Positions 27,887-55,428 of a DNA stretch of 64,000 bases are shown in pieces. A model generated the notes under the pieces. It had not been told where the DNA came from and made no database searches. It was given only the letters and a program-made list of their open reading frames with translations. How positions within the stretch are numbered: position 1 is the first letter of the stretch; every line of letters starts with the position of its first letter. The position numbers and the translations under genes are program-made. Location of the stretch: assembly GCA_041650835.1 (NCBI GenBank), contig JBAZKL010000003.1, forward strand, positions 99,682-163,681. The letters are read 5' to 3'. The DNA is from Candidatus Omnitrophota bacterium (GTDB lineage Bacteria; Omnitrophota; Gorgyraeia; Gygaellales; Profunditerraquicolaceae).

Positions 27887-27911
27887 CGTCTTATAATACC
27901 CTGTTGTAAAC

Positions 27912-30272: not shown

Positions 30273-30282
30273 AGTTATGTTT

Positions 30283-31248: not shown

Positions 31249-31271
31249 ATTTAAGCTGGTACGTATCCCGA

Positions 31272-32858: not shown

Positions 32859-34250
32859 TTAGAATTTCAGTTCGAGCTGCGTCCTTAAGAAACAGGCGTC
32901 ATCTGCGCTGGCCACATAAAAATCACCGGGATGGAAATATTCGCCCATCACAAGCGCCGAAAGATTCTTATTAAAGGTATAATCGAACTTCGCCTGAGTA
33001 AGCGTGCCTCTGTTCTTGCCCGTGCCGAAGGTATCACTCGTCGGGGCGATAGTCTCATTGGCTTTTAAATAATAGTACGCAAGGCTCAGCTTCGACTTTT
33101 TCGTCGGAGACAACAACAAACCGATCTTATACAATTGTAAGTTGGTCCAATAGCCGAGGGCACCCGCCTCGTTATTATACGTCAGATAATACAGTTCGGA
33201 ATAAACATCCGACATGATCGGCCAGCGGGAAAACAAAGGATTCCAGGATTCATTGGTAGATGAATCGCGGTCATCGCCTGACAAATACATATACCCGGCA
33301 TTGAGGACAGGAGAGAACATGACCTTTTTGAAATCCCGGGTAACGAACCCATACCCACCCATAGCCCTGCGGGCATCATCGCCGTACTTGCCGAACTGGG
33401 ACGCGAGCTGGCCTTTAAAAGTCCAAGGCGCGATAGTATATTTCGCGTAGGTGCCTACCGTACTTAAAGTACTCTTCCTGGCGCCCAACTTACTACCGAT
33501 ACCGCCCTCTTCGGCTTTGTAGATGTAATAATTCTCCAAATGCAGCTTCTTTGAAGGATCGCTCTTAAGATATGCGATAAAACCTTGTTCATCCCCGAGA
33601 TTAAGCTGCTGCTCTGCTCCCGTAGCTCCCGCGGGAAGCCCTTTACCGTCAAGGCGATTGATCACGGGTAATTTTTCATCAGTTGCGTCGTCAGAAAGAT
33701 AGATCAAATCAAGAGTATTCTTCTTATCGATCTTCCAAGAAGCCTTGATCGCGTCGAAATAGACCGTTCTCGATCCGTCTTGAGGAGTTCCGTCGGAGAT
33801 CAAGAAACCTTCTCCATACTGCCCGATAAGATCCTGGCGGCCGACTCTCACATCAACCGGTAATTCCCCGAAATTCTTAACGTCAAAATAAAGATTATCA
33901 AATACTACTTCATTAATATCGAAATGAAACCCTTTTTTCTTAGTTCCTGAAGCTTGGTGATAAAATGTATACGCCCTGTTCTCATTGGTCAACTTACCGT
34001 ACAAGGTAAGTTTCTTGGTAACATTCGCCTGCCCCCACAATGATGTCTTTATCCTGAAGAAATTACGGTTATCACTTGTCGGGGTAGCGCTTACCAAGCC
34101 ATTGGTCATATCATTCCAGTTTCTCCAAAATTCATGGCGTACGCGCAAATACGGCCCCCACTTGAATGTCACTTCAGCAAAAACAGGCGAAGCGACCATA
34201 ATACCTACCAGCGCAAAAGCAATAAGACAAAGCCAGTATTTCTTATTCAT
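32859..34250 (-). CDS. Outer-membrane beta-barrel protein (porin-like)
   Basis: 463 aa with a signal peptide (MNKKYWLCLIAFALVGIMVASPVFA). It has alternating amphipathic beta-strands rich in Y/G/T/N and a C-terminal aromatic residue (…LRTQLELKF). Confidence 0.55.
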   Translation of the reverse strand: MNKKYWLCLIAFALVGIMVASPVFAEVTFKWGPYLRVRHEFWRNWNDMTNGLVSATPTSDNRNFFRIKTSLWGQANVTKKLTLYGKLTNENRAYTFYHQASGTKKKGFHFDINEVVFDNLYFDVKNFGELPVDVRVGRQDLIGQYGEGFLISDGTPQDGSRTVYFDAIKASWKIDKKNTLDLIYLSDDATDEKLPVINRLDGKGLPAGATGAEQQLNLGDEQGFIAYLKSDPSKKLHLENYYIYKAEEGGIGSKLGARKSTLSTVGTYAKYTIAPWTFKGQLASQFGKYGDDARRAMGGYGFVTRDFKKVMFSPVLNAGYMYLSGDDRDSSTNESWNPLFSRWPIMSDVYSELYYLTYNNEAGALGYWTNLQLYKIGLLLSPTKKSKLSLAYYYLKANETIAPTSDTFGTGKNRGTLTQAKFDYTFNKNLSALVMGEYFHPGDFYVASADDACFLRTQLELKF

Positions 34251-34912
34251 TCCGCACCTCCTTATTGTTAGTCCACCTAAAAATTTGCATTACGAATTCC
34301 TGCTTGCCCGCTGTTCACCTAACAGGCCTTTAGACAGGAAAAAACGCTTTAATGAAGAATTGATTATTATACCAACCTGAAAAAGAGCGCAAATTTTAGG
34401 TTTCACCCTTACAATAACCCATCCCCCAGAGATCGGTTACAAAACACTAAAACAACACACAACTAATCAACAACCTATGTACAGCTTATCTACATCTTAT
34501 ATACATCTTTTCCACAGCTTATGCACTATTATATGCACAGGCCCTGTTTTGTCAAGTCTTTTTTTTAAGTTTTTTTTCATTAGCCCCCGAAGCAATAATC
34601 CTTCCTTACACCGACGGAGAGTCACCGTAAACAATATTAACGGTAATAATTCATAAATCTAAATGGAATAATTAGTTATGGAAATAACTCCGGATAGGAG
34701 GCCTAAGGAGGGAGGTTGGAAGGAGATGAAATAACATCAACCTATGGGGTTAAAATGATCATTAATGCGTTATAAATGACAGGCTTCCTATATATAGGTA
34801 GTTTTATGGTTAAAAGTGGCCCTAACTCAAGCAACAATCACTAACAGGTAGCTCAATTAGGGTACGGAGAAAGGTTAAGTAGTTGGATTATTTAACGTTA
34901 ATGATAAAGATT

Positions 34913-35037
34913 AAAGTCTAAAGAACAAAGGAAATTCAAAGACTAAATAACAAATTTTAAAATTACCTGACTGCAGACAGGAACCTTGAACCTTAAACCT
35001 TTAACCTTCCTTTGTTATTTAGCCTTTAGACTTTAAA
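34913..35037. repeat. Copy A of a ~125-nt hairpin-forming intergenic repeat element (REP/MITE-like)
   Basis: The imperfect inverted-repeat arms are AAAGTCTAAAGAACAAAGGAA (34914-34933) and TTCCTTTGTTATTTAGCCTTTAGACTTTAAA (35007-35037). The right arm matches copy B at 50700-50730 with 3-4 mismatches. Both copies contain AACCTTAAA between the arms. Confidence 0.5.
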
Positions 35038-35160
35038 CTTAACTTGTCATACCTAATTACCAATAATTAAGTCACAGGTCACAAAGAATCAGAAACTAGT
35101 GAATTAGAAGATCGAAAGGCTGGAAAGACGAGACTCTGGGGACTAAAAATCGAAGCTATA

Positions 35161-36834
35161 TTATACTGTTTTGTCCTGTAATTTAAACTTTTGTACCGTT
35201 TCCTTTAATTCTACGGCCAAACGGGCAACTTCCTGGCTCGAAGCGGCAACTTCCTGCATGGAAGCAGTTTGCTCCTGGGTATTCGCCGAAACATGCTCTA
35301 TCGCGGTTGCCGACTCTTTAGCTATCTGCGTAACTTCGCTTATTACCTTTACCATGCCCTCTATCTCAGCAACACTATCCTGGCCGGTAGAAGCAATATG
35401 GTTAACAAATACGGTAGCCTCCTGGGCAACCTTATTAATCTCCCCCAAAACCTCAGTTATTTTAGCTACCTGGGCCCGGCCGCCCTGGACTTCTTTTGAA
35501 CTGGCTTCAATGGAATTAACCGCGCGATTAGTTTCTTCCTGGATCAACGTGATCAGCCCCCCGATCTTACGCACAGCTTCAGCTGCGCCCTCAGCGAGCT
35601 TTCTAACTTCTTCGGCAACTACCGCGAAGCCTCTCCCCGCGTCTCCAGCCCTGGCGGCCTCAATTGCCGCGTTAAGCGCCAAAAGATTGGTCTGATCCGC
35701 GATAGAAGTGATAGTCTCGGTGATCTCTCCTATCTGCTGCGAAGTCTTGCCAAGCCCCTGAACAACAGAAGTTGTCTCTAAGACCGTATTTGTCAAATGG
35801 CTTATTCTTTCTACAGTTTCCAAAGCTGCGATACGCGCGCTTTCCGCGCAAGCCGTTGTCTGGCCAACCGCCCTATGCGCCATTTGAGCATCTTTAACCA
35901 CATCCTTAAGATTATCAGCTGCCCGGCCCATAGCTTCAAATACCCCATTGATCTGCTTTGCCTGAGTATTGGCGCCTTTACTTACCTGCGCCACGGAATA
36001 AGCGACTTCTTGCGTTGAAGAACTCATTTCCTGAATAGTATGCGTCGTCTCTTGTAAAGAAAACGCCACCTTATCGGCAATTCCGCTGATCTGAGCGATC
36101 ATGTCGCGTAACCCTTGAGACATCTTAGAGAATGCTTTCGACAACTCCAGCATCTCATCATCGCCCTTCATCTCGATCGCCCCCAAAGAAAGATCACCGG
36201 AAGAGATTTTCTTAGCAATAAGCATAAATGCCGACAAGGGCCGTAAAACATGCTTTTCCAGGAAAAGGCTGTACAGTACACCCCCGCCGACCAAGACTAA
36301 GACGCATAAAAAAACCGCCAGCATGATAATGCCGTTAACATCCGCGATGATATACTTATCCGTAATTCCCACCCTCAAGATACCAACGGCCTGAGTGCCT
36401 GACATAACAGGAATAACCGCCTCGAAAACACTCCCATAGCCGGGCCGCTTAAGGATAAACTGGCTTTTTGCCTTAAGACAGCGCTTCTCATCCGCTGTTT
36501 TGTTCAGGTATTTTCCCTCCAGGTCCCGGCGCGTGGAAACCAACACCAACCCTTCTTTCTCAAGAAGGATAATATACTCAATATCGAAATTCCTGCCCCG
36601 GGCATCTTCGAATAAACGGGAAATCCGGTCTATCGCGCCGGATTCTAAAAGGTCCCTGCATGAAAGCGCAAGGCTTGACGCCATGTTCTCAGCCGCTAAC
36701 TGCTGCATCGAAAAAAGCTGGGCGCGCATTCTATAGCCGACAACCGACAGCACTATGGCAGTTACCAGGGAAACAACCCCGAGAAAATAAACCATCATTT
36801 TCAATTTCATCCGGGAGCTATTCGCGAGATCCAT
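35161..36834 (-). CDS. Methyl-accepting chemotaxis protein
   Basis: 557 aa with two TMs flanking a ~150 aa periplasmic domain, a HAMP domain, and the signalling hairpin [38 protein letters not shown]. Confidence 0.9.
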
Positions 36835-36979
36835 ATACCCTCTGAAGCTGTTGAGAATTTAACGAACGGTTACTGATCTTGTATTGAATAAACAGCAAAA
36901 ACTGCTTTCGCTTGATAAAAAAGGCTGGAACAAATCAAAAACCCTGAAGACATCCTTCGATAAGGCAGGCAGGCGAAGC

Positions 36980-37504
36980 TTAACTTTCTTTTTCTTTACC
37001 TTCTTTCAGCACAGACGCGGAGGAGCCCTTCACCCGCTCAACATGCTGCACTTCTTCGGGGCTCAAGACGCTCTTAAGGTCTAAAAGGATCAAAAGCCTG
37101 TCTTTTAATTTCCCGACCCCCCAGATATAATGTTCAGGGATCTCCGTCATAACCAGCGACGGGACGTCTTCAACATATTCTGAAGATAACCGCAACACTT
37201 CTGAAACCGAATCCACGATCATGCCCACGGTGTTATCGCCGAATTCCACGATAACGATACGGGTGCGCTCCCCGCGTTCTTTAGCGGTAATACCCAATCT
37301 TTTCGCCAAATCAATAACAGCGACTACCTGGCCGCGCAAATTAACGACACCTTCGATAAAAACAGGAGCCTTGGGTAAATAGGTGATTTGCAGCAACCGG
37401 ACAATTTCCCTTACCTGGCTTATATCAACACCAAACTCTTCTTCCCCGATCGTGAAAACAACCAACTGGTATTCTTTTAATTTACTTTCAGCCATGAGGA
37501 TCAC
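36980..37504 (-). CDS. cheW: Chemotaxis coupling protein CheW
   Basis: 174 aa with a CheW-like SH3-type domain (EYQLVVFTIGEEEFGVDISQVREIV...). Confidence 0.9.
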   Translation of the reverse strand: MILMAESKLKEYQLVVFTIGEEEFGVDISQVREIVRLLQITYLPKAPVFIEGVVNLRGQVVAVIDLAKRLGITAKERGERTRIVIVEFGDNTVGMIVDSVSEVLRLSSEYVEDVPSLVMTEIPEHYIWGVGKLKDRLLILLDLKSVLSPEEVQHVERVKGSSASVLKEGKEKES

Positions 37505-37531
37505 CCCCTGTTATGAACTGCCCGGAAATAA

Positions 37532-38143
37532 CTATTCTTTTAATCCTAATAAATCAAATATTTTCAACAATGAGTCCGTTGACGGGAACAACAAAAACAA
37601 GCCTTCGAGATTCAACCCCTTAACTTTCATATCGGTCTTGATCACAATCGCCTCTTCCGAATACTGCGCGATCTGTATAAAAATAAAATCCAGGATAGCA
37701 CCCACCATATCCATCGCTAACGAAGGGATAGAAGTAAGGATGTTTTGGTGGACCATGTCGGCCAAAGCGGATAAATACGACCCGCCTAAGATATTCGCTG
37801 ATTCTTTTAAAGAGGACTGGAACAAGGAATCGTTAAAATCGATCTGGTCTTTAGGCAAACCCAGAAGGCTGCTGGATAAAAGCCGCGCGTCATTCGGAGA
37901 AAACAATAAAAATATCCTCCCGTAAATATCCCCCTTGATCTCCATATCTAAAACAAAAAATAACCGGTCCATTTCCCCTAATAATTTATAAATCTGCTCC
38001 AAGGGAACCATGGTAACTTCAGGGACGTTGATCTCGACTTTCTCAGCGACCAGATCGGCCAAGGCAGTAGCGGCATTGGCAGCGCCGATAGTGCCGATCT
38101 CTCTTATCAGATCCATCTGAGCTAAAGAAAACTTTTTATCCAT
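37532..38143 (-). CDS. cheC: CheC-family phosphatase
   Basis: 203 aa. Repeat 1 is DLIREIGTIGAANAATALADL, with N replaced by T. Repeat 2 is SLKESANILGGSYLSALADM, with E..N retained. Confidence 0.75.
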   Translation of the reverse strand: MDKKFSLAQMDLIREIGTIGAANAATALADLVAEKVEINVPEVTMVPLEQIYKLLGEMDRLFFVLDMEIKGDIYGRIFLLFSPNDARLLSSSLLGLPKDQIDFNDSLFQSSLKESANILGGSYLSALADMVHQNILTSIPSLAMDMVGAILDFIFIQIAQYSEEAIVIKTDMKVKGLNLEGLFLLFPSTDSLLKIFDLLGLKE

Positions 38144-38164
38144 GACCGATTCCTTTTTTATTAA

Positions 38165-39208
38165 CTATATTTTTTCTAATATCGCTTTCGCTATATCAAA
38201 AACAGGCAGCACCGCGTCAGACAAGCCGGCATCATAAATAACTTTCGGCATACCCCAGACAACCGATGTCTTCTCATCCTGGATAATTACCGTACCGCCT
38301 TTTTCTTTTATTTTCCTTACCCCTTCCAAAGCGTCCTTACCCATCCCCGTCAAGACTACCACGACAACATTCTTACAGTCATAATTCTCAACGACCGACA
38401 ACAGTGTCACATCCGCTGCAGGGCGGACAAAATTCACGAGAGGCCCCTGGTTCAATTTTATCCTTAAAACCCCTTTTTCATTTTCAATCCCCATATGGGA
38501 GCCGGCAGGCGCGACAAAAGCTTTTCCAGCGACAAGAATATCGCCCTCCTCAGCCTCTTTAGCCTTGATCTTTGACTGCCAGGAGATCCTTTCAGCAAAG
38601 CTTAAGGTAAATCCCAGCGGCATATGCTGGATTATCAAAAAAGACGCGGGGACATTCGCGGGGATATCCCGCATAACATCTAACACCGCTTTCGGGCCGC
38701 CCGTTGAAGCCGCTATCAAAACCAGCTTCTTAAAGGCGATCGGTTTTACCTCCGCGCCAAAAGTATCTGCTTTAAATTGTTCTTTTGAAGAGACCTTCGT
38801 CACCTCAACCTTAGCCGCTAATTTTATTTTCGCGATAATCTCATCTTTAAGCTTATTGATATCTAAAGAAATCTCGCCTGATGGCTTGGCAACAAAATCA
38901 ACCGCCCCTAACTCCAGCGCCCGCAATGTCGCGGTCGCGCCCGCGCGGGTATACGCGGAGATCATGACAACGCGCGATGGCTGTTTTTTCATTACTTCTT
39001 CAAGGACGCTTAACCCATCCAGCAAAGGCAAGTTTATATCCAAAGTGATCACGTCGGGCTTGAACTCGTATATTTTTTCCAAAGCCTCTTTACCGTCTTT
39101 CGCTTTACCGATTATTTCCAAAGCCGGATCGCTCTCAATAATATCGGAAATGATCTGGCGCATCAAGAATGAATCGTCAACGATTAAAACACGTATTTTA
39201 TTTTCCAT
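38165..39208 (-). CDS. cheB: Chemotaxis methylesterase CheB (REC plus methylesterase)
   Basis: 347 aa. It has an N-terminal receiver domain (VLIVDDS...DVITLDINLP) and a C-terminal catalytic domain (ASTGGPKAV, IIQHMPLGFT). Confidence 0.9.
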   Translation of the reverse strand: MENKIRVLIVDDSFLMRQIISDIIESDPALEIIGKAKDGKEALEKIYEFKPDVITLDINLPLLDGLSVLEEVMKKQPSRVVMISAYTRAGATATLRALELGAVDFVAKPSGEISLDINKLKDEIIAKIKLAAKVEVTKVSSKEQFKADTFGAEVKPIAFKKLVLIAASTGGPKAVLDVMRDIPANVPASFLIIQHMPLGFTLSFAERISWQSKIKAKEAEEGDILVAGKAFVAPAGSHMGIENEKGVLRIKLNQGPLVNFVRPAADVTLLSVVENYDCKNVVVVVLTGMGKDALEGVRKIKEKGGTVIIQDEKTSVVWGMPKVIYDAGLSDAVLPVFDIAKAILEKI

Positions 39209-39696
39209 TATACTTCTTTCTCTCCCCAGGAAACCGTTTTAACCAGGACCTTACCGTCATCCAAATTAAGCTCGATCGTTCTCCCGAAACTACCGCCCGT
39301 TTCCTGGACATCGACCTTCATATCTAAAGCCTTAAGCGTGATCATGGCAACTTCAAGGTTCTTTTGGCCGACATTAAGGATACTATCGGAAGCAATAAAA
39401 CCGAACATATGCGCTCCGCCGAAAAGCTTGGTAACAATTGAGCTGCGCGACACGCCCCGCTTCTCCATTTCTTCGACCATCTTCGTAAGAGCGGAGTTGA
39501 CAAACCGGCTGGGATTTGATTTAATCTTGGCTTTCTCGATATCAGGGAGCATCGGATGCGCCATCACGCCGATCTTCTTTGACGGGTCATACATAGTGAT
39601 ACCTAAACAGGAGCCAAGCCCCCGGGTGATCAATCGTGCAGGGGCTTCGGATATTTCCATTTGAGCCATATTTACTTCAATGGTTTTTGCTTCCAT
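39208..39696 (-). CDS. cheD: Chemoreceptor glutamine deamidase CheD
   Basis: 162 aa with GLGSCLGITMYD and GVMAHPMLP motifs. Confidence 0.85.
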   Translation of the reverse strand: MEAKTIEVNMAQMEISEAPARLITRGLGSCLGITMYDPSKKIGVMAHPMLPDIEKAKIKSNPSRFVNSALTKMVEEMEKRGVSRSSIVTKLFGGAHMFGFIASDSILNVGQKNLEVAMITLKALDMKVDVQETGGSFGRTIELNLDDGKVLVKTVSWGEKEV

Positions 39697-39709
39697 GATA
39701 ATCGTACCC

Positions 39710-40081
39710 CTATCCTCCTATAACTCTTTTTAATGCCTCCACGACGCGTGAAGGTTGAAAAGGTTTTGTTACAAAATCCTTGGCACCTGCCTGAATAGCT
39801 TCAACAACCAAGGAATGCTGCCCCATAGCCGAAACCATGATGATCTTCGCCTGCGAATCCACTTTCATGATTTCCTTGACCGCGCCAATACCGTCGATCT
39901 CTTCAACCTTCGGCATGACAATATCCATCGTGACTAAGTCGGGTTTAAGCTGCTGATATTTATCGATCGCATCTTTGCCGTTCTCAGCCTCACCGCAAAT
40001 CTCTATACCTTCCTTCTTGAGAATATCGGAAAGCATCCGACGCATGAACAACGCATCATCAACAATTAATACCCGTGCCAT
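39710..40081 (-). CDS. cheY: Chemotaxis response regulator CheY
   Basis: 123 aa single-domain receiver (LIVDDALFMRRML, DLVTMDIVMP, SAMGQ, KDFVTKPF). Confidence 0.9.
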   Translation of the reverse strand: MARVLIVDDALFMRRMLSDILKKEGIEICGEAENGKDAIDKYQQLKPDLVTMDIVMPKVEEIDGIGAVKEIMKVDSQAKIIMVSAMGQHSLVVEAIQAGAKDFVTKPFQPSRVVEALKRVIGG

Positions 40082-40136
40082 CTGCTACCTCCTTTGTATT
40101 TTTGAATCAGGCCTTCTTTAAAGTCCCGGAATACAT

Positions 40137-40982
40137 TTATCCGATTTTCTGGTAAATCTTATTCTTATTGCCCGGTTCTGCCGCCGTGAATAAATCTTTT
40201 TGCCAAACATTTTCCACTTTGCCGACGGTCAAATACCCTTTCGCGTTAAGCGAGCTATAGAACTTCCGGGTAAATTCCTCCTGCTGTTGGCGGGTGAGGT
40301 AAATCATAATGTTCCGGCAGCAAACCAGGTCCATGAACTGCAAATACGGTTCGGTTATCAAATTGTGCTGCTGGAACTTCACCATCCCCTTTATTTCGTC
40401 TTTCAATTTGTAAACGTTATTATAAACTGGTATGAAATATTTATCAAGCGTTTTCTTATCTAACTTTTTTAACTCGATAGCCTTATATTCGGCTTTCGCC
40501 GCTTTATCCAATGCTTCCCGGTCCATATCGGTAGCGATGATCCTGAGGGAATAATCCCCCCGGCTGGCCAATTCTTCTTTCAGCATGATCGCCAGGGAAT
40601 ACGGCTCTTCTCCGGTCGCGCACGCCGCGGACCAAACCCGCAGCACCCGGTTATTCATTTCGGCCTTACGCTTGAGGATGTCCGGGATCACAACGCTGCG
40701 CATTGCCTGGAAAACTTCTATATCGCGGAAGAACTCGGTAACATTAACGCCAAGGGTATTCAATAAAAACCCGAATTCTTCGGGGGTCTTTCGGATATAC
40801 CCCTCATAATCCACATACCGCTCCAGCTTCAGATTCGACATACGCACGCGCAAGCGCCGCAAAACAAAACTCTTACGATACGAGCTTAAGTCGATACCCT
40901 TTTGTTGCCGGATATAAGCAAGGAGCGACAAAAATCCCGGATCTTTTAAATATTCCGCTTCCTGGGGATCCTGCATATTCAT
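40137..40982 (-). CDS. cheR: Chemotaxis methyltransferase CheR
   Basis: 281 aa with a CheR N-terminal helical domain and a SAM-binding domain (RVWSAACATGEEPYSLAIML). Confidence 0.9.
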   Translation of the reverse strand: MNMQDPQEAEYLKDPGFLSLLAYIRQQKGIDLSSYRKSFVLRRLRVRMSNLKLERYVDYEGYIRKTPEEFGFLLNTLGVNVTEFFRDIEVFQAMRSVVIPDILKRKAEMNNRVLRVWSAACATGEEPYSLAIMLKEELASRGDYSLRIIATDMDREALDKAAKAEYKAIELKKLDKKTLDKYFIPVYNNVYKLKDEIKGMVKFQQHNLITEPYLQFMDLVCCRNIMIYLTRQQQEEFTRKFYSSLNAKGYLTVGKVENVWQKDLFTAAEPGNKNKIYQKIG

Positions 40983-40989
40983 TCTATAA

Positions 40990-41253
40990 TTAATGACGCG
41001 GGTTCTTGCTGATATGCAAGATCGCTTTTGTTAATTCTTTAACGACGTCTGCGCGGAACTGGGTGCCTTGTTCATTGAGCTTGGTAAACACCCGCCCCTT
41101 ATCGGTAATGACATAATTCGGCGGTAGCCTGTTCAAAGCCCAAACCATAATATCAAACTTGCATTTCTGGCATTTACATATATCCTCGATCTCGGAGAAT
41201 AATTCATTCAACTCATCTTCAACAATATCTTCCATGTAATTATGTATTTGCAT
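40990..41253 (-). CDS. ComFB-family protein (late competence ComFB-like; candidate cyclic-dinucleotide receptor)
   Basis: 87 aa. It shows the ComFB hallmark cysteine cluster and downstream motif ICKCQKCKFDIMVWALNRLPPNYV. It is embedded inside the che operon with an 8 bp gap to cheR. Confidence 0.75.
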   Translation of the reverse strand: MQIHNYMEDIVEDELNELFSEIEDICKCQKCKFDIMVWALNRLPPNYVITDKGRVFTKLNEQGTQFRADVVKELTKAILHISKNPRH

Positions 41254-41412
41254 GAATGCCTCCTTGTAGCTTCATTATTCGGCTGCTGCAACACCGATAA
41301 CCTTACACCCCCCGCGCTGATCGCACCTTGACTTATCGGATAGCCAAGTGCGCGCTTTCTGCGCAGGAATTGCGCGGGGTATGCTGCTTTCTGCAGCACC
41401 GATAACCGAATA

Positions 41413-43560
41413 TTAAACTCTATCCTCAAACAATATCTGAACCCTAGCCCCTTCAGTTAAAGGCGTCACAAATCCCGCAGGGCTATCATTAACCAGGATC
41501 CTGATCTTTTTCCCAAAGCCCTTGTAAGGATCAAAGTCAATATACTTGAATATATCGGAAAGCAGGATCTGTCTTTTCTTTACGTAATAGACCTTTATAT
41601 CCGCGCCATCGATCAAGAATTCATCAAGTTTGACCTGCTGGCCGTTCATAAAGGCCTGCACCGCCTCAAAGGCCATATCAATATCTTTACCGTCTACGGT
41701 CACATGTATCGTATCATGCATTTTAGGCAAGTCAATAATATCTTTGATCCGGTAATAGGTCGGGGTATCCGCGACAAATTCCAGGAAATCATTTTCCTTC
41801 AATTCAGCATCCAAGCCGGTCAATTGCCCATTAAGCCTCAGCGTAAAATTCTGCTGGGTCAATATCCGCGGGGCCTCATTGACATTAACCAGGATCTGGC
41901 GTTCAGACAAATTATCCATGCCGATACCCTGAAACTCCAAAAGATCGCGAACCCGGGGGCCAATCGTTTCAATAACAGCGCGGTCGGGCACCATTGCTTC
42001 CGCAGCGCGCCGGATACCGTTCACCAAAACAGGGGCGTTGAATTTCACCTGCTGACGGTTAAATATTACGGAAACCGCCTGAGGGGCGACAACTTCCTGC
42101 AAACGAACACACCCGTCAACGCCGTCAACGGCTTCAACAAAGGTGAGGGAATCCCCATCTTCTACTTGATCAGCGAGAGAATTAACCGGGTTACCGTTTA
42201 AACTTACCGTTGCTGAGCCGCCGAGGCTACCTTTAAAAATCCGCAGCTCCCCATTGACTTCAGCCGTCAAAGACAAACCGGGGCGGGGAAACAGCTTCTT
42301 GTTCACAATCACCCCTGATGCCGTCAATACGGCCATGATATCTTTTTTTTGCTGAAAATCCAGCATCCGTAACGGCCGGCCGTTGACCGTAACATTAATA
42401 AAACGCAATCCTAAAGACTGCATCGTCATGAGCGTAATACCTATGGGAGTTATGGTTTCCGGCCCCTTGAGCTTCCCGGTAAGGTCATGGACACTCTTGA
42501 TCATATGCGGCAGGCGTACGCCAACCTTGTGAGGGGCGATCCCAAAGCCTTTCGCAAGCTCCTGGACCAGGTCAAACGTCTGGCTTGCCCCTCCGACAAC
42601 AACAACAGCTTCGGGAGGCCCTTCATTCAACGCAAGGCCGGCCTGAGCGATCGATGCCGCTAATTTGTTAACGGCAGGTAACAGGTTTTTCTTAAGGGTG
42701 AAAATATCGATACGCTGAGGCTTTCCCCAAATATCTTCATAGGCGACCATGACATCGTGATCCAGGGAGCGCTTGATCCGTTCCGCGGAAGAGAAATCCA
42801 CCAGCAAAACCTTGGAAATATATTCCGTGATCTCATCACCCGCTTCGGGGACCATGCCGTAGGCGAAAACAAACCCGCCCTTGGTCAAGGCCAGATCAGA
42901 CGTTCCGGCACCGATATCAATAAGGACGATATTAAGGCTGCGCATCTCCGGGGGGACAATAGCATTGAGAGCGGCAATAGGCTCAAGGGTCATATTAATC
43001 GCCTCAAGCCCGGCCTTTTCCAACACGGCGAACATGCTGTCTAAAACTACGCGCGGCAAGAATGTCGCAATAACCTCGACACAGATCATTTTCCCGCGAT
43101 GGCCCCGGAGGCTGGAGATCCGGTTATTATCCAGCTCGTAATAAACAGGACTGTAGCCGACGCAATAAAATTCAGAGAGCTTGTTCCCCGAATTAGAAAC
43201 GATCGCCTCGATAGCTTCCAACTCCAGGTCACGCACGATCGCCGGAGTGATCTCCTGCTCCGTGCCAAGTTCTTTGGAAACCTTACTTTTATGCGCGGCC
43301 AGATTTCTCCCGGCGACCGCTACCCCGACTTGCCTGAGCTTCCTGCCCAGGCGCGATTCAAGGCTTTCTTTTATCTTAACGACGGTCTTGACGACCTCTT
43401 CAATGCTATGGATCTGCCCGTCGAACATCGGGCGCGCCGCATGTTCCCGGACCTCCACATCGACGATCTCGACATGCTCATCCTGCTGACGGGCAACAAT
43501 CCCCATCACCTTGCGTGTCCCGATATCCAACGCAAATATTTCCCGCGCCATAGGAATCAT
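41413..43560 (-). CDS. Actin-like ATPase (FtsA/PilM/EutJ superfamily) N-terminal half fused to a C-terminal array of 4-5 small ThiS/MoaD-like (beta-grasp) repeats
   Basis: 715 aa. The N-terminal ~370 aa carry ASKHA motifs: FALDIGTRKV (phosphate-1), LIDIGAGTSDLAL (phosphate-2) and VVVGGASQ (adenosine). The C-terminus repeats a V/L-x-V/L-N-G...L..GD.I.F/V pattern (VTVNGRPL; SLNGNPVNSLADQVEDGDSLTFV; RLNGQLTGLDAELKENDFLEFV; MNGQQVKLDEFLIDGADIKVYYV; LVNDSPAGFVTPLTEGARVQILF). Its start overlaps the upstream cheC by 4 bp (ATGA). Confidence 0.6.
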   Translation of the reverse strand: MIPMAREIFALDIGTRKVMGIVARQQDEHVEIVDVEVREHAARPMFDGQIHSIEEVVKTVVKIKESLESRLGRKLRQVGVAVAGRNLAAHKSKVSKELGTEQEITPAIVRDLELEAIEAIVSNSGNKLSEFYCVGYSPVYYELDNNRISSLRGHRGKMICVEVIATFLPRVVLDSMFAVLEKAGLEAINMTLEPIAALNAIVPPEMRSLNIVLIDIGAGTSDLALTKGGFVFAYGMVPEAGDEITEYISKVLLVDFSSAERIKRSLDHDVMVAYEDIWGKPQRIDIFTLKKNLLPAVNKLAASIAQAGLALNEGPPEAVVVVGGASQTFDLVQELAKGFGIAPHKVGVRLPHMIKSVHDLTGKLKGPETITPIGITLMTMQSLGLRFINVTVNGRPLRMLDFQQKKDIMAVLTASGVIVNKKLFPRPGLSLTAEVNGELRIFKGSLGGSATVSLNGNPVNSLADQVEDGDSLTFVEAVDGVDGCVRLQEVVAPQAVSVIFNRQQVKFNAPVLVNGIRRAAEAMVPDRAVIETIGPRVRDLLEFQGIGMDNLSERQILVNVNEAPRILTQQNFTLRLNGQLTGLDAELKENDFLEFVADTPTYYRIKDIIDLPKMHDTIHVTVDGKDIDMAFEAVQAFMNGQQVKLDEFLIDGADIKVYYVKKRQILLSDIFKYIDFDPYKGFGKKIRILVNDSPAGFVTPLTEGARVQILFEDRV

Positions 43561-44177
43561 GTTTGATTTATACTAAGGATCTTATGCACGCTTTCCTGCG
43601 CCAATAAGAAAAGGACGAAGACATTCAACTCGACATCTTCGATAAAAAGACGGTTCTCGATCGGCAGGATATACCCGGCATCGCCCTTATGCAGCCCGGC
43701 GATCAAGTGACGGACCAAACGAGCCATCGTATCCATGTGGATCTGATTTACCGACGGGACTAATTTATACAGCTTCAAGAACTCAGTCACCGCGTTCAAG
43801 TAGGAACAACAGAGGATATTAGAACTTTCGGAGAGGGCGGAAGCATCCGCAAGATTAAAAAGCTGGCTGGTCCCGGCTTTCCGGCGCGCGAGAATATCGA
43901 TCATTGAAAGCGCGCTCTTGAGCGAGAACAAAACCAGCATATCACCGGTTAAAGACCCCAAAATATTCACGCTGACCGCCATGCCTATTTCATGGGGGTC
44001 GGATAAGAATTCGGCGCTTAAAACCTCAGGGAATGAAAGGATCTTAACGCTCGGGACATTAATAAGCACTTTCTTGTTAAAAAGCTGGCCTAAAGCCGTG
44101 GCGGCATTACCCGCGCCGATATTGCCGATTTCTTTTAATACGTCTAATTGCTGAGATGTTAAATTCAATCCGCTCAT
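43557..44177 (-). CDS. cheC: CheC-family phosphatase
   Basis: 206 aa with a canonical first repeat (LDVLKEIGNIGAGNAATALGQL) and a second repeat (SALSESSNILCCSYLNAV). Confidence 0.85.
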   Translation of the reverse strand: MSGLNLTSQQLDVLKEIGNIGAGNAATALGQLFNKKVLINVPSVKILSFPEVLSAEFLSDPHEIGMAVSVNILGSLTGDMLVLFSLKSALSMIDILARRKAGTSQLFNLADASALSESSNILCCSYLNAVTEFLKLYKLVPSVNQIHMDTMARLVRHLIAGLHKGDAGYILPIENRLFIEDVELNVFVLFLLAQESVHKILSINQT

Positions 44178-44189
44178 TTTTACCTTTGC

Positions 44190-46184
44190 CTAACGCAGGC
44201 TCATCGTATCTAAAATCAACGCGACTTTCCCGTCACCCAGTATCGTCGCTCCCGCAATTCCCTTTGTCCGCTTGATCAACGCCCCTAAAGGCTTGACGAC
44301 AATATCTTGTTCGCCTAATACCTGGTTGACGACCAAACCGGCTGCTTTTGTGCCGTATTCAATAATGATCACGGACAAACTTGTATCTTCGGCGGCATCA
44401 AGCTGTAACGCCAGCTTCTTAATATCGAGTTCTTTCTGCAGCCGGATGATCGGGATGATCTCATCCCTGACCCGCGCCACTTCAAAATTCTGTATGATCC
44501 GGAGCTCTTCTTCCTGGATCTTAATGATCTCCCGGACGCTCATTAAGGGGATCGCAAAGACCTCGTTACCCACCTTGACCAGCATCGCCTTGATGATCGC
44601 CAACGTCAACGGCAGCGTCAGGATAAAACGGCTCCCCTTACCGGGCTCGGTTTCAAATTCAAGCCTGCCCCCCAGGGATTCGATCTTGGATTTAACGACA
44701 TCCAGCCCTACGCCCCTGCCTGAAATATCGGTTACTTTCTTGGCGGTCGAAAAGCCGGGCAGCGTGATCAGGTCAAGGATCTTTTTTTCATCAAGGCCTA
44801 CGGCTTCTGCTTCCGTTATCAGTCCTTTCGTAAGAGCAACGTTCTTGACTGTCGTGAAATTAACGCCCCTGCCGTCATCGGCTATCTCAATGAAGATCTG
44901 GCCTTTCTGCCTGCTGACCTGAATAAGCAATTTGGCGTTCGGCTTCTTGCCGGCAGCGCTGCGCTCCTCGGGGTTTTCGATACCATGATCAATAGCATTG
45001 CGTATCAAATGCACCAGCGGGTCGCTCATTTCATCAAGGACCACGCGGTCCAATTCGATCTCACTCCCGCTGATCTCCAGCTCCACCTGTTTATTCTGCT
45101 TCCGGGCCAGGTCCCTGACCATGCGCGGAAAAGTATCCAGGATATAAGCGACCGGTAATAACCGCGTCTGCATGATCTCATCTTGCAGCGACGAAATAAG
45201 CCGGTCGAGCATCGAACTGACATCTTCTAAAGGGTCTATCTTATACTGCTGAGAGATCTGCATCAGGCGGATCTTAGCGATCGCCAGCTCCCCCATCAAA
45301 TTCATGATCTTATCCAAACGTTCCACCGGCAGGCGCATACTCTGGATCTTCTTGACATAATGCTGGGCAGGAGCAGCGACGGTAGCGGATGAAGCAGCCC
45401 CCCCTGCTACGGCAGGACGGACATTGATTTCAAGGGAATTGATCTCCACCTTCTCGATCTCCGAGATAGTCAACAAGACCCGGTTGATCGTTTCTTGAGT
45501 CTCTTTTGTTTCCAGGATCAAGGTAAAGGTAAAATCAAATTTACCCTCTTTCAGGCAATCAAGCGCAGGCAAGGACTTAATGATCTCTCCGCTGCGTTTG
45601 ATATTATTAACCACCAGGTACGCGCGGGCCTCACGCATGACACAATCCTTGGAAATGATCACTTTGACCTTATAGATATTATGCTTGAGGTCCTTTGCCA
45701 GGTTTATTTTTTTAAGCTCTTCTTCGCTGAACTCAATATCCCCGTTCCCTTCTAAAACCTTCTTCGCCGGTCCGGTTGAACCCGAGGCAATTTTCTCCAC
45801 ATCGGGCTCCTGGGTAAAAATATCCTTCAAATCCTGCAAAAAAGGATTAATGTCGACCTTGGATTCCTGTTTGGCTTTTATTTCCTCGACTAATTTTTCC
45901 AGGAGGTCAACGGTAGCAAAAAGCTTATCGATGATCTCTGAGGTGACCTTCTTGCGCTGGCTGCGCAACTCATCCAGAAGGTTCTCCATATGGTGGGATA
46001 ACTGGGTAAGTTTATCAAACCCCATCGTTGCCGACATGCCTTTTAAGGTATGCATACAACGGAAGATCTCATTCAACGAACTTAAGTCGGCGGGATTTTC
46101 TTCAAGTTTAACCAGGCAATTACTGATAACGCTGAGGTATTCTTCGGACTCGGTAAGAAATAATTCTCTATAGCTATCCTGCAT
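44190..46184 (-). CDS. cheA: Chemotaxis histidine kinase CheA
   Basis: 664 aa. It has an HPt domain (FRCMHTLKGMSATMGF), a dimerisation domain, a HATPase_c domain (DDGRGV, GRGVGLDVV) and a C-terminal CheW-like domain. Confidence 0.9.
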   Translation of the reverse strand: MQDSYRELFLTESEEYLSVISNCLVKLEENPADLSSLNEIFRCMHTLKGMSATMGFDKLTQLSHHMENLLDELRSQRKKVTSEIIDKLFATVDLLEKLVEEIKAKQESKVDINPFLQDLKDIFTQEPDVEKIASGSTGPAKKVLEGNGDIEFSEEELKKINLAKDLKHNIYKVKVIISKDCVMREARAYLVVNNIKRSGEIIKSLPALDCLKEGKFDFTFTLILETKETQETINRVLLTISEIEKVEINSLEINVRPAVAGGAASSATVAAPAQHYVKKIQSMRLPVERLDKIMNLMGELAIAKIRLMQISQQYKIDPLEDVSSMLDRLISSLQDEIMQTRLLPVAYILDTFPRMVRDLARKQNKQVELEISGSEIELDRVVLDEMSDPLVHLIRNAIDHGIENPEERSAAGKKPNAKLLIQVSRQKGQIFIEIADDGRGVNFTTVKNVALTKGLITEAEAVGLDEKKILDLITLPGFSTAKKVTDISGRGVGLDVVKSKIESLGGRLEFETEPGKGSRFILTLPLTLAIIKAMLVKVGNEVFAIPLMSVREIIKIQEEELRIIQNFEVARVRDEIIPIIRLQKELDIKKLALQLDAAEDTSLSVIIIEYGTKAAGLVVNQVLGEQDIVVKPLGALIKRTKGIAGATILGDGKVALILDTMSLR

Positions 46185-46212
46185 AAAAGGCCTTCAAGGA
46201 TTGTGTATTGTA

Positions 46213-46821
46213 TTATTCGCCGATGCTTTTAATAATAAGCTCCAGCCCCACCGAGTTGGGGATCAGGAAAAAATGCCCCCGGATGGAAGCTTTGAGTTCC
46301 GTAAATTCAGATTCGATCAAAAGGGCAAACTCAGACGTACAACTTAATTCGATCAAAACATAATCAAGCATTGCCCCCGCCATATCAATGATCAACTCCG
46401 GCACAGTCGGGACCAACCCCAAGCCGACAAAGCTCCCTAACGCCCCCAAATAAGCGTTAGCGAGTATCACCCCTACTTCTTTTAACGCAGAACGCTCGAC
46501 ATCGCCGATAACGCTTCCGCCGGAAACCGGCTTGCCGGTCATCAGCCCCGCGAGGGCAAGCGCGTCTTTCTGGGAAAAGATAAAAATAATGGTGCTCGGT
46601 AAATCGCCGAGGACCCGTAAAACCAGGCCCGCGACAAGCTGATCATCGCCGCCGACGGCATTCGGGACCTCTTCAATAGGAAGAAACAATATCCGGGGGA
46701 CAACGATACTAATATTGGTATCGAGCAACTGCGATAGCGCGGTCGCGGCATTACCGGCACAAATATTGCCGATCTCCTTCATCGCGTCTTTTTGCTTATC
46801 GGTAAAAGCCATATCAGCCAT
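46213..46821 (-). CDS. cheC: CheC-family phosphatase
   Basis: 202 aa with a canonical first repeat (DAMKEIGNICAGNAATALSQLL). The second repeat has E but N replaced by V (SALKEVGV). Confidence 0.85.
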   Translation of the reverse strand: MADMAFTDKQKDAMKEIGNICAGNAATALSQLLDTNISIVVPRILFLPIEEVPNAVGGDDQLVAGLVLRVLGDLPSTIIFIFSQKDALALAGLMTGKPVSGGSVIGDVERSALKEVGVILANAYLGALGSFVGLGLVPTVPELIIDMAGAMLDYVLIELSCTSEFALLIESEFTELKASIRGHFFLIPNSVGLELIIKSIGE

Positions 46822-46869
46822 TTCGCTTACGCTCCTCCTGCGTTTACGTGCAAATAAATAAACGGTCGG

Positions 46870-47256
46870 TTACAATCTTTTTTCCGCCGGAAGCAAAGCA
46901 TTACGGACCGCCTCCACCAGCCGGATCGCCTGGACCGGCTTCGTCACAAAATCTTTGGCTCCCGCCCGTATCGCCTCCACAACCAACGACTGCTGCCCCA
47001 TAACCGAACAAATCAATATCTTCGCGTTCGGGTCGATTTTGACAATTTCCCTCACAGCGCCGATACCGTCAAGCTCTTCCATCATAGGCATGACAATATC
47101 CATAGTCACCAGATCAGGCTTGAACTCTTGATACTTCACAACCGCATCTTTGGCGTTCGAAGCTTCAACGCAGATCTCGTAACCTTCTGCGGTCAAGATC
47201 TTGGCGATCATTTGGCGCATAAAAACAGCATCATCAACTATCATAATTTTTGCCAT
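46870..47256 (-). CDS. cheY: Chemotaxis response regulator CheY (second copy, first gene of the operon)
   Basis: 128 aa single-domain receiver (IMIVDDAVFMRQMI, DLVTMDIVMP, KDFVTKPV). It is ~60% identical to the CheY at 39710..40081. Confidence 0.9.
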   Translation of the reverse strand: MAKIMIVDDAVFMRQMIAKILTAEGYEICVEASNAKDAVVKYQEFKPDLVTMDIVMPMMEELDGIGAVREIVKIDPNAKILICSVMGQQSLVVEAIRAGAKDFVTKPVQAIRLVEAVRNALLPAEKRL

Positions 47257-47273: not shown

Positions 47274-47301
47274 ATTATAAGCTACTCTGACATTATGTCA
47301 A
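47274..47301 (-). promoter_or_regulatory. Candidate sigma70-like promoter for the che operon
   Basis: On the minus strand: TTGACA (47301-47296), a 16-nt spacer, then TATAAT (47279-47274). The RBS AGAGG and the ATG follow within ~18 nt. The predicted TSS would fall at or inside the SD, so the leader would be very short. Confidence 0.3.
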
Positions 47302-47357: not shown

Positions 47358-48134
47358 TTATTTTTTCTTAAGCGATCTTGTTTTGATAACGTCAGAGATC
47401 ACCCCCCAGCCGCATAAAAAACCGCAGGCTGCATAAAACAGCGTTATCACCAAGCGGTCGGCAACCGCCAAAGCAACAGACTGTTTAAAAGGCACCCCTG
47501 TCTGCATCAACAAGAACGTCATCCCGCTTTCCTTGATACCGAGCCCTGAGGGAAGAGGAGAAAGATATCCCATGGTAAAGGAAATGGCGATAAGCTTAAC
47601 CATTTCCCCCCAGGGGATACGCACGCCGAACACCTTGAATAAAAACCAATAATAACAGACGCCGGAGATAATATTCAAGAGCGCAAGCGGCGCCACGGCA
47701 AGAATATTACGGCTCGTTCCTTTAAAATACCCCGCGGCGTTGCTGATAAAATCACCCAGCCGCTTTCTTTTATTCAGGATAAAAAAGAAGGCCAGCGCAA
47801 AAAAAACGATCAAGAACCAATGGGTGCGCGCCGCAAGCTGCGCGCCGAAATATAACCCGGCGATAATCCACGGCAAGACAGAAAAGAGCTCGAGAGCGGC
47901 GAATGACGCAAGGCTTTTATATAACGGGACAGAGTCATTCTTAAGCGCCGCGCTTGCCAATGCGTAGCCGGAACCCGTCAAAAATATCTTATTCAACGCC
48001 CCCGCAACGATCGTCCCTTGTATCGCTTTTCCCAAAGAAACCTGCCGATTAAGTAAGATCCAAAAAACACATGAGCTTAAAAAAACACTCATTCCTAACG
48101 CCAAGAAAATAAATACCCCATAGACGATCGTCAT
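47358..48134 (-). CDS. Polytopic membrane protein (lysylphosphatidylglycerol-synthase TM-region / UPF0104 flippase-like)
   Basis: ~258 aa with 7-8 TM helices. Start chosen at the second ATG (MTIVYGV...) because it forms a 4-bp ATGA overlap with the upstream methyltransferase stop; the track start is 48146. The family call is weak. Confidence 0.4.
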   Translation of the reverse strand: MTIVYGVFIFLALGMSVFLSSCVFWILLNRQVSLGKAIQGTIVAGALNKIFLTGSGYALASAALKNDSVPLYKSLASFAALELFSVLPWIIAGLYFGAQLAARTHWFLIVFFALAFFFILNKRKRLGDFISNAAGYFKGTSRNILAVAPLALLNIISGVCYYWFLFKVFGVRIPWGEMVKLIAISFTMGYLSPLPSGLGIKESGMTFLLMQTGVPFKQSVALAVADRLVITLFYAACGFLCGWGVISDVIKTRSLKKK

Positions 48135-48793
48135 CGTTTCCGGCACACACCCGTTAATCCTTTACACCAAGGAGTAAACCTGCTCAAGAAGCCGTGGAAT
48201 TTGCGCACAGATGAAAACCGGCGCCACGGCAGGAGCCATCCGAAACGCCCGTATAAACACACTTCCGGGAAACTCTTTTCTAACAGCGCTTTAAACTCGA
48301 AATAATCCAGTTCCGAGAAATGCGTGGGATGCTTTTCTCCGGTCAGGGCGCAATATACCCAAAACAACGGCTTATTCGGCGTCGAGATCACGAATGTTCC
48401 CGAAGGAGACAGCACCCGGGATATCTCCTCAAGAAAACCCCGGTGAAACAACCGATGAGGGAGATGTTCAATGACTTCGATAGCGCAGACTGTCTCAAAA
48501 GAATTATCCTTAAAAGGGAGCTTACGCGCATCCGCGCGGACAAAGCTTATTCCTGCCGCGCCTGCCAACCGGCGAGCCCTGAGGAGCCTGCCGGCGGAAA
48601 TATCCATCGAGATCAACGTGTCGCAGCGGCCGCGGATATCTTTGGCCCACATGCCGTCTCCGCAGCCGATCTCCAGGCACCTTCCCCGTACATGCGTAAG
48701 CACAAAATCAACAAACTCCCGGGAGCCGCTTTGCCGATGCGCCTGCTTTGCCGCGGAAAGCTCTAAAGAATCCAAGTATGTTTTTTCATTCAT
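48131..48793 (-). CDS. Class I SAM-dependent methyltransferase
   Basis: 220 aa with motif I (LEIGCGDGMW) and motif post-I/II (ISMDIS; VCAIEVIEHL). Confidence 0.7.
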   Translation of the reverse strand: MNEKTYLDSLELSAAKQAHRQSGSREFVDFVLTHVRGRCLEIGCGDGMWAKDIRGRCDTLISMDISAGRLLRARRLAGAAGISFVRADARKLPFKDNSFETVCAIEVIEHLPHRLFHRGFLEEISRVLSPSGTFVISTPNKPLFWVYCALTGEKHPTHFSELDYFEFKALLEKSFPEVCLYGRFGWLLPWRRFSSVRKFHGFLSRFTPWCKGLTGVCRKR

Positions 48794-48794
48794 A

Positions 48795-50602: not shown

Positions 50603-50622
50603 AAATTATTTTCTTAAGTTTA

Positions 50623-50730
50623 AAAGCTAAAGATCAAATAACAAAGGAAACTCAAAGGTTAAAGTTTCAATTCTAAAATTTAACCTTAAAACTTTAATCT
50701 TCCTTTGTTCTTTAAACTTTAGACTTTAAA
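50623..50730. repeat. Copy B of the hairpin-forming intergenic repeat element
   Basis: The arms are AAAGCTAAAGATCAAATAACAAAGGAA (50623-50649) and TTCCTTTGTTCTTTAAACTTTAGACTTTAAA (50700-50730). It lies 17 bp downstream of the epimerase stop and ~20 bp upstream of the GT4 start. Confidence 0.5.
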
Positions 50731-50761
50731 ATTATCTTATTACTCCTGATTCTATTAAACA

Positions 50762-51901: not shown

Positions 51902-51945
51902 TAATATGTTCAACGAAAATAACGAATACAACGGAACTAACGATA

Positions 51946-55422: not shown

Positions 55423-55428
55423 GTAAAG

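Follow-up and report, generated by a model that had tools for sequence, protein, structure and literature searches.

What does a chemosensory pathway steer when its operon lies near type IV pilus genes and not among flagellar ones? The question is raised by a 64,000-nucleotide stretch of DNA from a Candidatus Omnitrophota bacterium (GenBank assembly GCA_041650835.1, contig JBAZKL010000003.1, positions 99,682 to 163,681 of the forward strand; here called the window), in which positions 35161-47256 hold 13 co-directional minus-strand genes in the transcription order cheY1-cheC-a-cheA-cheC-b-ftsA-like-comFB-cheR-cheY2-cheD-cheB-cheC-c-cheW-mcp (Table 1). Pfam matches well above threshold were obtained for all 13. 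A preliminary description of this DNA had given the same genes and coordinates, each gene now being backed by Pfam, and had counted twelve of them, a miscount of its own list; it proposed that the pathway may control pilus-based behaviour or a non-motility output rather than classical flagellar chemotaxis. Our analysis leads us to the view, at a probability of roughly one half, that this is an Omnitrophota F1-type pathway, in the style of Thermotoga, Firmicutes and archaea, that has been coupled to a type IV pilus-like machine rather than to a flagellum.

Chemosensory class and linkage to type IV pilus genes

To which class the system belongs was judged from its kinase, receptors and auxiliary proteins. 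CheA has a single Hpt domain followed by P2, dimerization, kinase and CheW domains (Pfam order, residues 5-663), with no receiver, and matched the NCBIfam model CheA_Halo at 514 bits versus 386 bits for the E. coli-type CheA; the other best NCBIfam models were CheY_Halo and CheC_Thermotogales. CheY1 has the acidic pocket, the phospho-accepting Asp, the Ser/Thr and the Lys of a response regulator. The methyl-accepting chemotaxis protein (MCP) of the operon has its hairpin tip at D398, flanked by arms of 153 and 159 residues that each correspond to about 22 heptads, and its best match among solved structures was TM1143 of T. maritima, a 44-heptad (44H) receptor, with a length difference of 7 residues. 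A second MCP outside the operon coordinates (27912-30272, 786 aa) has a C-terminal arm of about 22 heptads, so that both receptors have about 22 heptads per arm. Three CheC proteins and one CheD are encoded beside the core genes, as is characteristic of F1 systems. From the CheC and CheD genes, the make-up of CheA and the apparently ~44-heptad receptors we infer that the system is F1-like. The Tfp class (Pil-Chp) was ruled out, as CheA has one Hpt domain, a P2 domain and no receiver; in the Tfp class, multiple Hpt domains are combined with a receiver in 94% of the CheAs (PMC10782961). The preliminary description had named a CheA class typical of flagellar systems, together with a flagellar regulon, as evidence that would overturn a pilus output, and our data go half of that way, the class being F1-like and not Tfp.

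The genomic hallmark of the Tfp class, an association with type IV pilus genes, was nevertheless found in the window and in related loci. The pilus or pseudopilin genes noted in the preliminary description are indeed present (Table 1), and past the end of the window the contig continues the block with a major pilin and an MshEN-T2SSE ATPase. Here the block is set apart from the operon by an insertion that contains LPG_synthase_TM, two methyltransferases, GT4, an epimerase, a 510-aa protein, GT2, a GGDEF-like gene with the motif GSNDF and a tetratricopeptide repeat (TPR) gene. This exopolysaccharide (EPS) insertion is lineage-specific, being absent from the loci L005, L007, L009, L017, L092 and L093, in which pilus genes directly adjoin the operon and haem-synthesis genes follow it. 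In L009 and L017 the series minor pilins-PilC-PilMN-PilO-pilin leads directly to cheY1 in the same orientation; upstream of the che operon are pilins, PilC and an MshEN-PilZ protein in L005 and L007, and a secretin, a T2SSE ATPase and a pilin in L092 and L093. The order pilin-TPR-(divergent REC-GGDEF)-GT2-epimerase-LPG_synthase_TM-cheY1 in L003 is intermediate towards the arrangement in the window. Two loci from outside the Omnitrophota with another che gene order, L094 (labelled Elusimicrobia) and L096, have PilMN-PilO-x-secretin immediately upstream. In all, of about 14 informative che/FtsA-like loci, 10 are immediately preceded by pilus genes in the same orientation.

Gene order and content are conserved across Omnitrophota. 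The same order, with three cheC genes, the ftsA-like gene and comFB, was found in at least 10 other Omnitrophota loci. Among them are nine whose FtsA-like proteins are 89% (L002), 62% (L003), 59% (L004), 59% (L005), 52% (L007), 54% (L009), 55% (L017), 56% (L092) and 56% (L093) identical to that of the window; on L010, L011 and L014, which are short contigs, a part of this gene order was found. The clusters of L094 and L096 are ordered differently, as cheW-(cheR/mcp)-cheY-cheB-cheA-ftsA-like-cheC and further genes. No flagellar gene was found among the Pfam-identified open reading frames (ORFs) of the 64-kb window, in which about nine ORFs have no Pfam match, nor in about 16 related flanks of ±10 kb; the absence of flagellar genes reported in the preliminary description therefore holds among Pfam-identifiable ORFs. 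Type 4a pili are near-universal in Omnitrophota, flagella and chemotaxis go unmentioned in two large surveys of the phylum, and 14 Ace Lake metagenome-assembled genomes contain no motility genes.

The junctions within the operon are less tight than had been described. The genes had been called mostly translationally coupled; true overlaps occur at only two junctions, cheC-b/ftsA-like (4 nt) and cheD/cheB (1 nt), and the remaining gaps comprise eight of 7-55 nt, one of 159 nt between ftsA-like and comFB and one of 145 nt between cheW and mcp. The perfect promoter-like element directly upstream of cheY1 (Table 1) indicates that the operon probably has its own promoter, despite the polysaccharide genes that precede cheY1 on the same strand. 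A scan of the window for terminators yielded no excess over shuffled sequence. The 159-nt gap (41254-41412) is spanned by an uncalled minus-strand ORF of 73 aa (41208-41429), and the corresponding gap measures 18 to 386 nt among relatives; the 910-nt gap after mcp (34251-35160) contains no ORF longer than 59 aa. Neither gap matched an Rfam family, two tRNAs being the sole Rfam matches in the window.

The CheC paralogues and the two embedded genes

Two of the three CheC proteins had been described as each having one degenerate active-site repeat, and this proved to be real and conserved among orthologues (9-11 per paralogue were counted). In CheC-a the Asn of site 1 is present in 9/10 orthologues and that of site 2 in 0/10, where it is Val or Leu (Val in the window). 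CheC-c is the reverse: 0/10 have the Asn of site 1, which is Thr or Ser (Thr in the window), and 9/9 have that of site 2. Both proteins matched Pfam CheC and NCBIfam CheC_Thermotogales. Among CheC-b orthologues the Asn was found in 4/11 at site 1 and 2/11 at site 2, and 7/11 have neither; unlike most of them, the window copy retains both, and aligned to T. maritima CheC (1XKR) it shows both D/S-x3-E-x2-N motifs (family motif D/S-x3-E-x2-N-x22-P). A catalytic Glu and Asn in both sites is therefore no general property of these paralogues, failing in CheC-a, in CheC-c and mostly in CheC-b. Taken together, the three resemble a complementary pair of single-site phosphatases and a third protein of CheC fold that is largely non-catalytic. 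Three CheC genes beside one cheD had also been called an unusual dosage; the genes are there, and the same number was found in every related Omnitrophota locus examined, so that this multiplicity is a fixed design of the lineage and no peculiarity of this genome. The preliminary description had itself named such multiplicity in close relatives as evidence that would refute its reading, and the dosage can indeed no longer be called unusual for this genome. Archaeal F1 systems normally combine several CheC proteins with one CheD; H. salinarum, for example, has CheC1-3. A fourth CheC-like gene, with site 2 only, lies outside the operon and directly precedes a gene for a receiver (REC)-GGDEF-like protein with the degenerate motif GGDDF (together 25914-27487, plus strand); the two may form a phosphatase/receiver pair separate from the main operon.

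In most related loci cheC-b abuts the ftsA-like gene or overlaps it by 1-4 nt, the exception being L093 with a gap of 95 nt. The product of the latter gene has 715 residues, of which the N-terminal ~385 form an FtsA fold and the C-terminal ~330 form tandem beta-grasp modules of ThiS/MoaD/TGS type. Its AlphaFold model has a pLDDT of 88, and the N-terminal domain superposed on FtsA with TM-scores of 0.82-0.85 and on PilM with up to 0.79. Among 33 aligned family members, the ASKHA phosphate and adenosine motifs DxGTR, DxGAGTxD and GG are invariant. Both FtsA and PilM belong to the actin-like ASKHA proteins and bind short peptides of their partners (FtsZ/FtsN or PilN). An FtsA orthologue is ruled out by the score against TIGR01174 (98 bits versus a cut-off of 175.85), the che neighbours, the beta-grasp C terminus and the lack, in sequence and model, of a membrane-targeting helix; neither ftsZ nor ftsQ was identified in the window. 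A PilM orthologue was ruled out as well, since PilM_2 scored 19.5 bits against a cut-off of 27, no pilN is adjacent and a genuine PilM-N fusion is encoded separately at 58521-60263.

The family comprises 526 representative clusters at E<1e-30. Most of its distant members (31-36% identity) occur in housekeeping contexts in apparent Firmicutes, next to CtsR/McsAB/ClpC, MutS2, AroA and AcpS (assigned by reading the sequences, with no domain search), and these contexts were uninformative on function. A tree built by neighbour joining unites the che-linked members in one clade, made up of the Omnitrophota loci, L013, L015, L085 and L091 from Methanolobus; besides Methanolobus, the clade takes in bacteria from outside the Omnitrophota. 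L094, L095 and L096, fetched later, are not part of the tree. The ftsA-like gene adjoins cheA or a cheC gene in every che arrangement seen. One of these is in the archaeon Methanolobus zinderi (L091; CP058215.1, 2009407-2031530), whose cluster reads cheY-cheB-cheA-cheC-ftsA-like-cheR-cheC-cheC-cheD-...-cheC, with four CheC-like genes and no CheF; its proteins share 26-50% identity with their counterparts in the window. In archaea the FtsA-like protein was found in Methanolobus only, and its next-best matches are bacterial, at ~41% identity; with a bacterial nearest outgroup, Methanolobus probably acquired the protein or the module horizontally, between domains. We also considered that the FtsA-like protein might supply the adaptor lacking from the che2 clusters of Methanosarcina, which have no CheF; this Methanolobus-only distribution and bacterial outgroup do not support that idea. 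As Methanolobus is cultured and holds the cheA-cheC-ftsA-like-cheR core, parts of the hypothesis are experimentally approachable there.

The second embedded gene encodes a stand-alone ComFB that matched Pfam PF10719 at 90.6 bits (cut-off 25). In B. subtilis, ComFB is a cyclic di-GMP (c-di-GMP) receptor that inhibits flagellar function and motility. The dimerization and c-di-GMP contacts of BsComFB are N4, E7, D33, A36, L37, N40, R/K41, Y46, V47 and Y55 (PMC12448109); when aligned to its structure (4WAI), the window protein has N5, E8, D34, V37, W38, N41, R42, Y47, V48 and F56, and all of these positions are retained, which makes it a putative cyclic dinucleotide (c-di-NMP) receptor. It is 61-92% identical across 120 listed homologues, the named ones all being from Omnitrophota bar one labelled Deltaproteobacteria, and in L003 and L004 the neighbouring CheR is less well conserved than ComFB. 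The comFB gene lies upstream of cheR at a spacing of 7 nt. ComFB-CheR fusion proteins have been reported in Omnitrophota (PMC12448109) and provide a Rosetta-stone argument for ComFB and CheR as a functional pair; none was found among the 120 closest ComFB homologues, all of which stand alone, and the evidence for fusions rests on that publication.

Table 1. Features of the window. Positions count from its first nucleotide.
Feature	Position	Strand	Description
Type IV pilus-like block	57524-63445	-	pilin, PilO, PilM-PilN fusion, PilC/T2SSF, minor pilins
Insertion between pilus block and che operon	47358-57441		~10 kb of TPR, GGDEF-like and polysaccharide genes
REC-GGDEF-like	54466-55422	+	GSNDF for GGDEF; Glu for phospho-acceptor Asp
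Promoter-like element	47274-47301	-	TTGACA-16 nt-TATAAT, 12/12 match; then ribosome-binding site GAGAGG and cheY1 ATG
cheY1	46870-47256	-	single-domain response regulator; Pfam Response_reg 92 bits; best NCBIfam CheY_Halo
cheC-a	46213-46821	-	CheC family; active site 1 only intact
cheA	44190-46184	-	Hpt-P2-dimerization-HATPase-CheW, without receiver domain (Pfam)
cheC-b	43557-44177	-	CheC family; both sites intact in window copy
ftsA-like	41413-43560	-	715 aa; FtsA-fold ASKHA ATPase N terminus, ThiS/MoaD/TGS-type beta-grasp C terminus
comFB	40990-41253	-	87 aa, stand-alone; Pfam PF10719 90.6 bits; putative c-di-NMP receptor
cheR	40137-40982	-	methyltransferase (Pfam)
cheY2	39710-40081	-	single-domain response regulator, ~66% identical to cheY1
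cheD	39208-39696	-	deamidase/CheC partner; catalytic Cys and His motifs present (GSC...AH)
cheB	38165-39208	-	methylesterase; REC and CheB_methylest (Pfam)
cheC-c	37532-38143	-	CheC family; active site 2 only intact; CheX-like logic
cheW	36980-37504	-	coupling protein (Pfam)
mcp	35161-36834	-	transmembrane; sCache_3_2 sensor, HAMP, MCPsignal, ~44-heptad signalling hairpin
Porin	32859-34250	-	Alginate_exp-family outer-membrane porin; own perfect promoter-like site 34528-34555
Sensory string	27587-32552	-	periplasmic binding protein, NMT1-like binding protein, second MCP, PilZ
PilZ	27587-27886	-	99 aa, stand-alone; canonical RxxxR (RRKYSR) and DxSxxG (DLSSGG); 25 nt downstream of second MCP
Fourth CheC-like gene	25914-26522	+	site 2 only; outside operon

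The proposed pathway and its rivals

By analogy with what is known of these families, the core, the adaptation enzymes and the phosphatases would work as in Thermotoga and Bacillus. The two ~44-heptad MCPs, one with a Cache sensor, would control CheA through CheW; CheA would phosphorylate CheY1 and CheY2; CheC-a (through site 1) and CheC-c (through site 2) would act as single-site CheY-P phosphatases; and CheR, CheB and CheD would provide adaptation. ComFB most likely responds to a cyclic dinucleotide by acting on CheR, whereby the level of a second messenger would set receptor methylation, a dependence of CheR activity suggested by the published fusions and by gene adjacency. We speculate that CheC-b and the FtsA-like/beta-grasp ATPase serve as an output or scaffold module and connect CheY-P with the basal body of the pilus (PilM-N/PilC/ATPase), based on their conserved adjacency or overlap, the catalytic loss in CheC-b and the docking of partner peptides by FtsA and PilM; this module is the best candidate for an output, yet the weakest step of the model. 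In the lineage of the window, a further output related to EPS may come from the inserted polysaccharide cluster. A bolder version, which we put forward tentatively and regard as rather doubtful, is that the FtsA-fold/ubiquitin-like ATPase and the decayed CheC-b are an unrecognised switch coupling CheY-P to type IV pili in the ultra-small, host-attaching Omnitrophota, with cyclic-dinucleotide gating of adaptation by ComFB and CheR, and that the module spread horizontally to other bacteria and Methanolobus.

Several observations weigh against recruitment to a pilus. Synteny with pilus genes is not proof of function, and the flanks of four che-linked loci (L013, L015, L095 and Methanolobus L091) contain no pilus genes. 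F1-class systems normally steer flagella or archaella; Ca. Omnitrophus magneticus, which is magnetotactic, is flagellated, and the phylum also has homologues of FlgV, a flagellar protein. A six-frame search of the window and eight loci for a CheY-docking peptide of FliM/FliY type (LSQxEIDxLL-like) found none, the pattern being strict and of low power, and no other direct clue to the output was found. With respect to the ATPase, BLASTP showed no similarity between the 715-aa protein and the PilM-N of the window, so it is not a recent paralogue of the latter, and about 65 more distant family members in housekeeping contexts imply that the core activity is not specific to chemosensory systems. 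Finally, neither GGDEF-like protein of the window has an intact GG(D/E)EF motif, so that neither is an obvious source of the cyclic dinucleotide. The pilus hypothesis of the preliminary description thus finds partial support, from the linkage seen in 10 of about 14 loci, while the F1-like class, typical of flagella and archaella, tells against it.

One alternative, which we consider unlikely, is a non-motility pathway of Dif/Wsp type, with EPS or envelope synthesis and cyclic dinucleotides as its output through the flanking glycosyltransferase, methyltransferase, porin and GGDEF-like genes. The operon does lie between an EPS-type string (47358-54386) and the Alginate_exp porin, flanks that are conserved in L002-L004, and genes for ComFB, PilZ and two REC-GGDEF-like proteins lie close by; moreover, in M. 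xanthus the Dif pathway, which includes the CheC homologue DifG, governs EPS and takes its input from type IV pili. However, the EPS genes are missing from the six loci listed above, a perfect promoter-like site precedes the che operon itself, neither GGDEF motif is intact, and in L095 the porin accompanies the MCP where there are no EPS genes.

About as improbable, though still a live rival, is an ordinary F1 operon for flagellar chemotaxis, in which flagella would be encoded elsewhere, the pilus neighbourhood would be coincidental and the embedded genes would be accessory modulators. The F1-like components fit this explanation, as do the existence of some Omnitrophota with flagella or FlgV homologues, the inhibition of flagellar motility by ComFB in B. 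subtilis, and the multiple CheC proteins, since archaeal F1 systems usually combine several of them with one CheD and the Methanolobus cluster has four CheC-like genes. Against this, no flagellar gene was seen in the window or the related flanks, pilus genes lie immediately upstream in 10 loci that represent three che gene orders, and the phylum surveys report type 4a pili nearly everywhere with flagella unmentioned. Similarly unlikely is the proposal that the FtsA-like protein is a cytoskeletal factor for array positioning or partitioning (cf. ParC/ParP, PpfA) or a link to division, the real output lying elsewhere: a full FtsA fold with intact nucleotide-binding motifs makes polymerization plausible and most family members are outside che loci, but the gene strictly adjoins cheA or cheC, shares start/stop overlaps with a CheC-like gene and not with cheW or mcp, and its product lacks the terminal membrane-targeting helix of FtsA in both sequence and model.

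Recruitment of an F1-type pathway to type IV pili would matter for several reasons. Omnitrophota are widespread, uncultured and mostly ultra-small, and are thought to attach to or prey on cells via type 4a pili; a phylum-wide, pilus-linked che operon is a concrete candidate for the means by which they find and respond to hosts. If true, it would be a second, independent coupling of Che proteins to pili, F1-derived rather than of Tfp class. The operon also defines a che-specific clade of an uncharacterised FtsA-like/multi-ubiquitin-like family and places a putative cyclic-dinucleotide receptor directly in an adaptation module. The parts belong to known families, and ComFB-CheR fusions are already published; in the literature we found no description of the conserved Omnitrophota operon, its pilus linkage, the half-site CheC pattern or a che-specific FtsA-like/multi-beta-grasp clade, and no paper on an FtsA-like protein in che operons or on chemotaxis in Omnitrophota.

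Neighbouring genes and comparison with known systems

The porin adjoins the MCP in the window, in L002, in L003 and in L095 (487-1797), the last being an Omnitrophota che cluster that has another gene order and lacks EPS genes; its position beside the MCP there suggests that the porin serves the receptor and not polysaccharide export, and it may admit the MCP ligand. The PilZ gene and the GGDEF-like genes mentioned in the preliminary description are present, both GGDEF signatures being degenerate. The protein with GSNDF looks like a pseudo-receiver/pseudo-cyclase, and its gene stands in divergent orientation by the EPS/che block also in L003 (2447-3400) and L004 (1465-2412). On the contig beyond window position 64000, the pilus ATPase (L090, 1664-3340) has an N-terminal MshEN, a known c-di-GMP-binding module, and L005 and L007 encode a separate MshEN-PilZ protein within the pilus block; these MshEN domains may be another sign of cyclic dinucleotides controlling the pilus.

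Four sizeable ORFs had no Pfam match: three of 549, 427 and 408 aa (15604-19841, minus strand) between a PMT_2 glycosyltransferase and a TPR/GH2-like protein, and one of 510 aa (51946-53478, minus strand) in the polysaccharide string, which is conserved in L002. A complete Rnf operon (4130-8986, plus strand; RnfC, G, D, E/A and B-like), for an ion-translocating ferredoxin:NAD oxidoreductase, is consistent with anaerobic energy metabolism. The tRNA genes are at 2727-2799 and 13796-13869 (plus strand); the first lies inside the 5′ end of a called ORF (2637-4088), which places the start of this major facilitator superfamily (MFS) gene further downstream. A DivIC/FtsB septum protein (13518-13790, plus strand) follows enolase. 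PADLOC gave no meaningful match for anti-phage defence in the window.

Among known systems, the F1 pathways of Thermotoga, Bacillus and archaea share with this operon a five-domain CheA with P2, CheC together with CheD, and apparently the ~44-heptad receptors; the best NCBIfam models are those of archaeal CheA and CheY and of Thermotogales CheC, the closest solved MCP is TM1143, and several CheC paralogues are also found in haloarchaea. The operon differs from them in that no flagellar or archaellar genes, CheF, FliM or FliY are nearby and type IV pilus genes are there instead, in that its CheC proteins are single-site or siteless, and in the embedded, conserved FtsA-like/beta-grasp and ComFB genes. 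With the Pil-Chp/Tfp systems (P. aeruginosa ChpA, cyanobacterial Tax/Pix) it has in common the linkage to type IV pilus genes, two CheY-like proteins and pilus behaviour as the proposed output; unlike theirs, its CheA has one Hpt domain, a P2 domain and no C-terminal receiver, the operon encodes CheC and CheD, and its receptor appears to be ~44H. Given these differences, the link to pili was probably recruited independently of the Tfp class. The Dif system of Myxococcus xanthus likewise has a CheC-type phosphatase, DifG, and is tied to type IV pili and EPS, and the lineage of the window also has EPS genes between its pilus and che blocks; Dif differs in having no CheR/CheB/CheD set in its operon, no FtsA-like protein or ComFB, another gene order and another phylum. 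For the embedded proteins, the 715-aa ATPase resembles FtsA and PilM in its superposable N-terminal domain and invariant nucleotide-binding motifs, and differs from them in its che neighbours, its tandem beta-grasp region and the lack of a C-terminal amphipathic helix. The proposed ComFB-CheR pair would parallel MapZ and CheR1 of P. aeruginosa, through which c-di-GMP controls receptor methylation; there the receptor is a PilZ protein, whereas here the fold is that of ComFB, and the putative pairing is suggested by the 7-nt spacing of comFB and cheR and by the published fusions.

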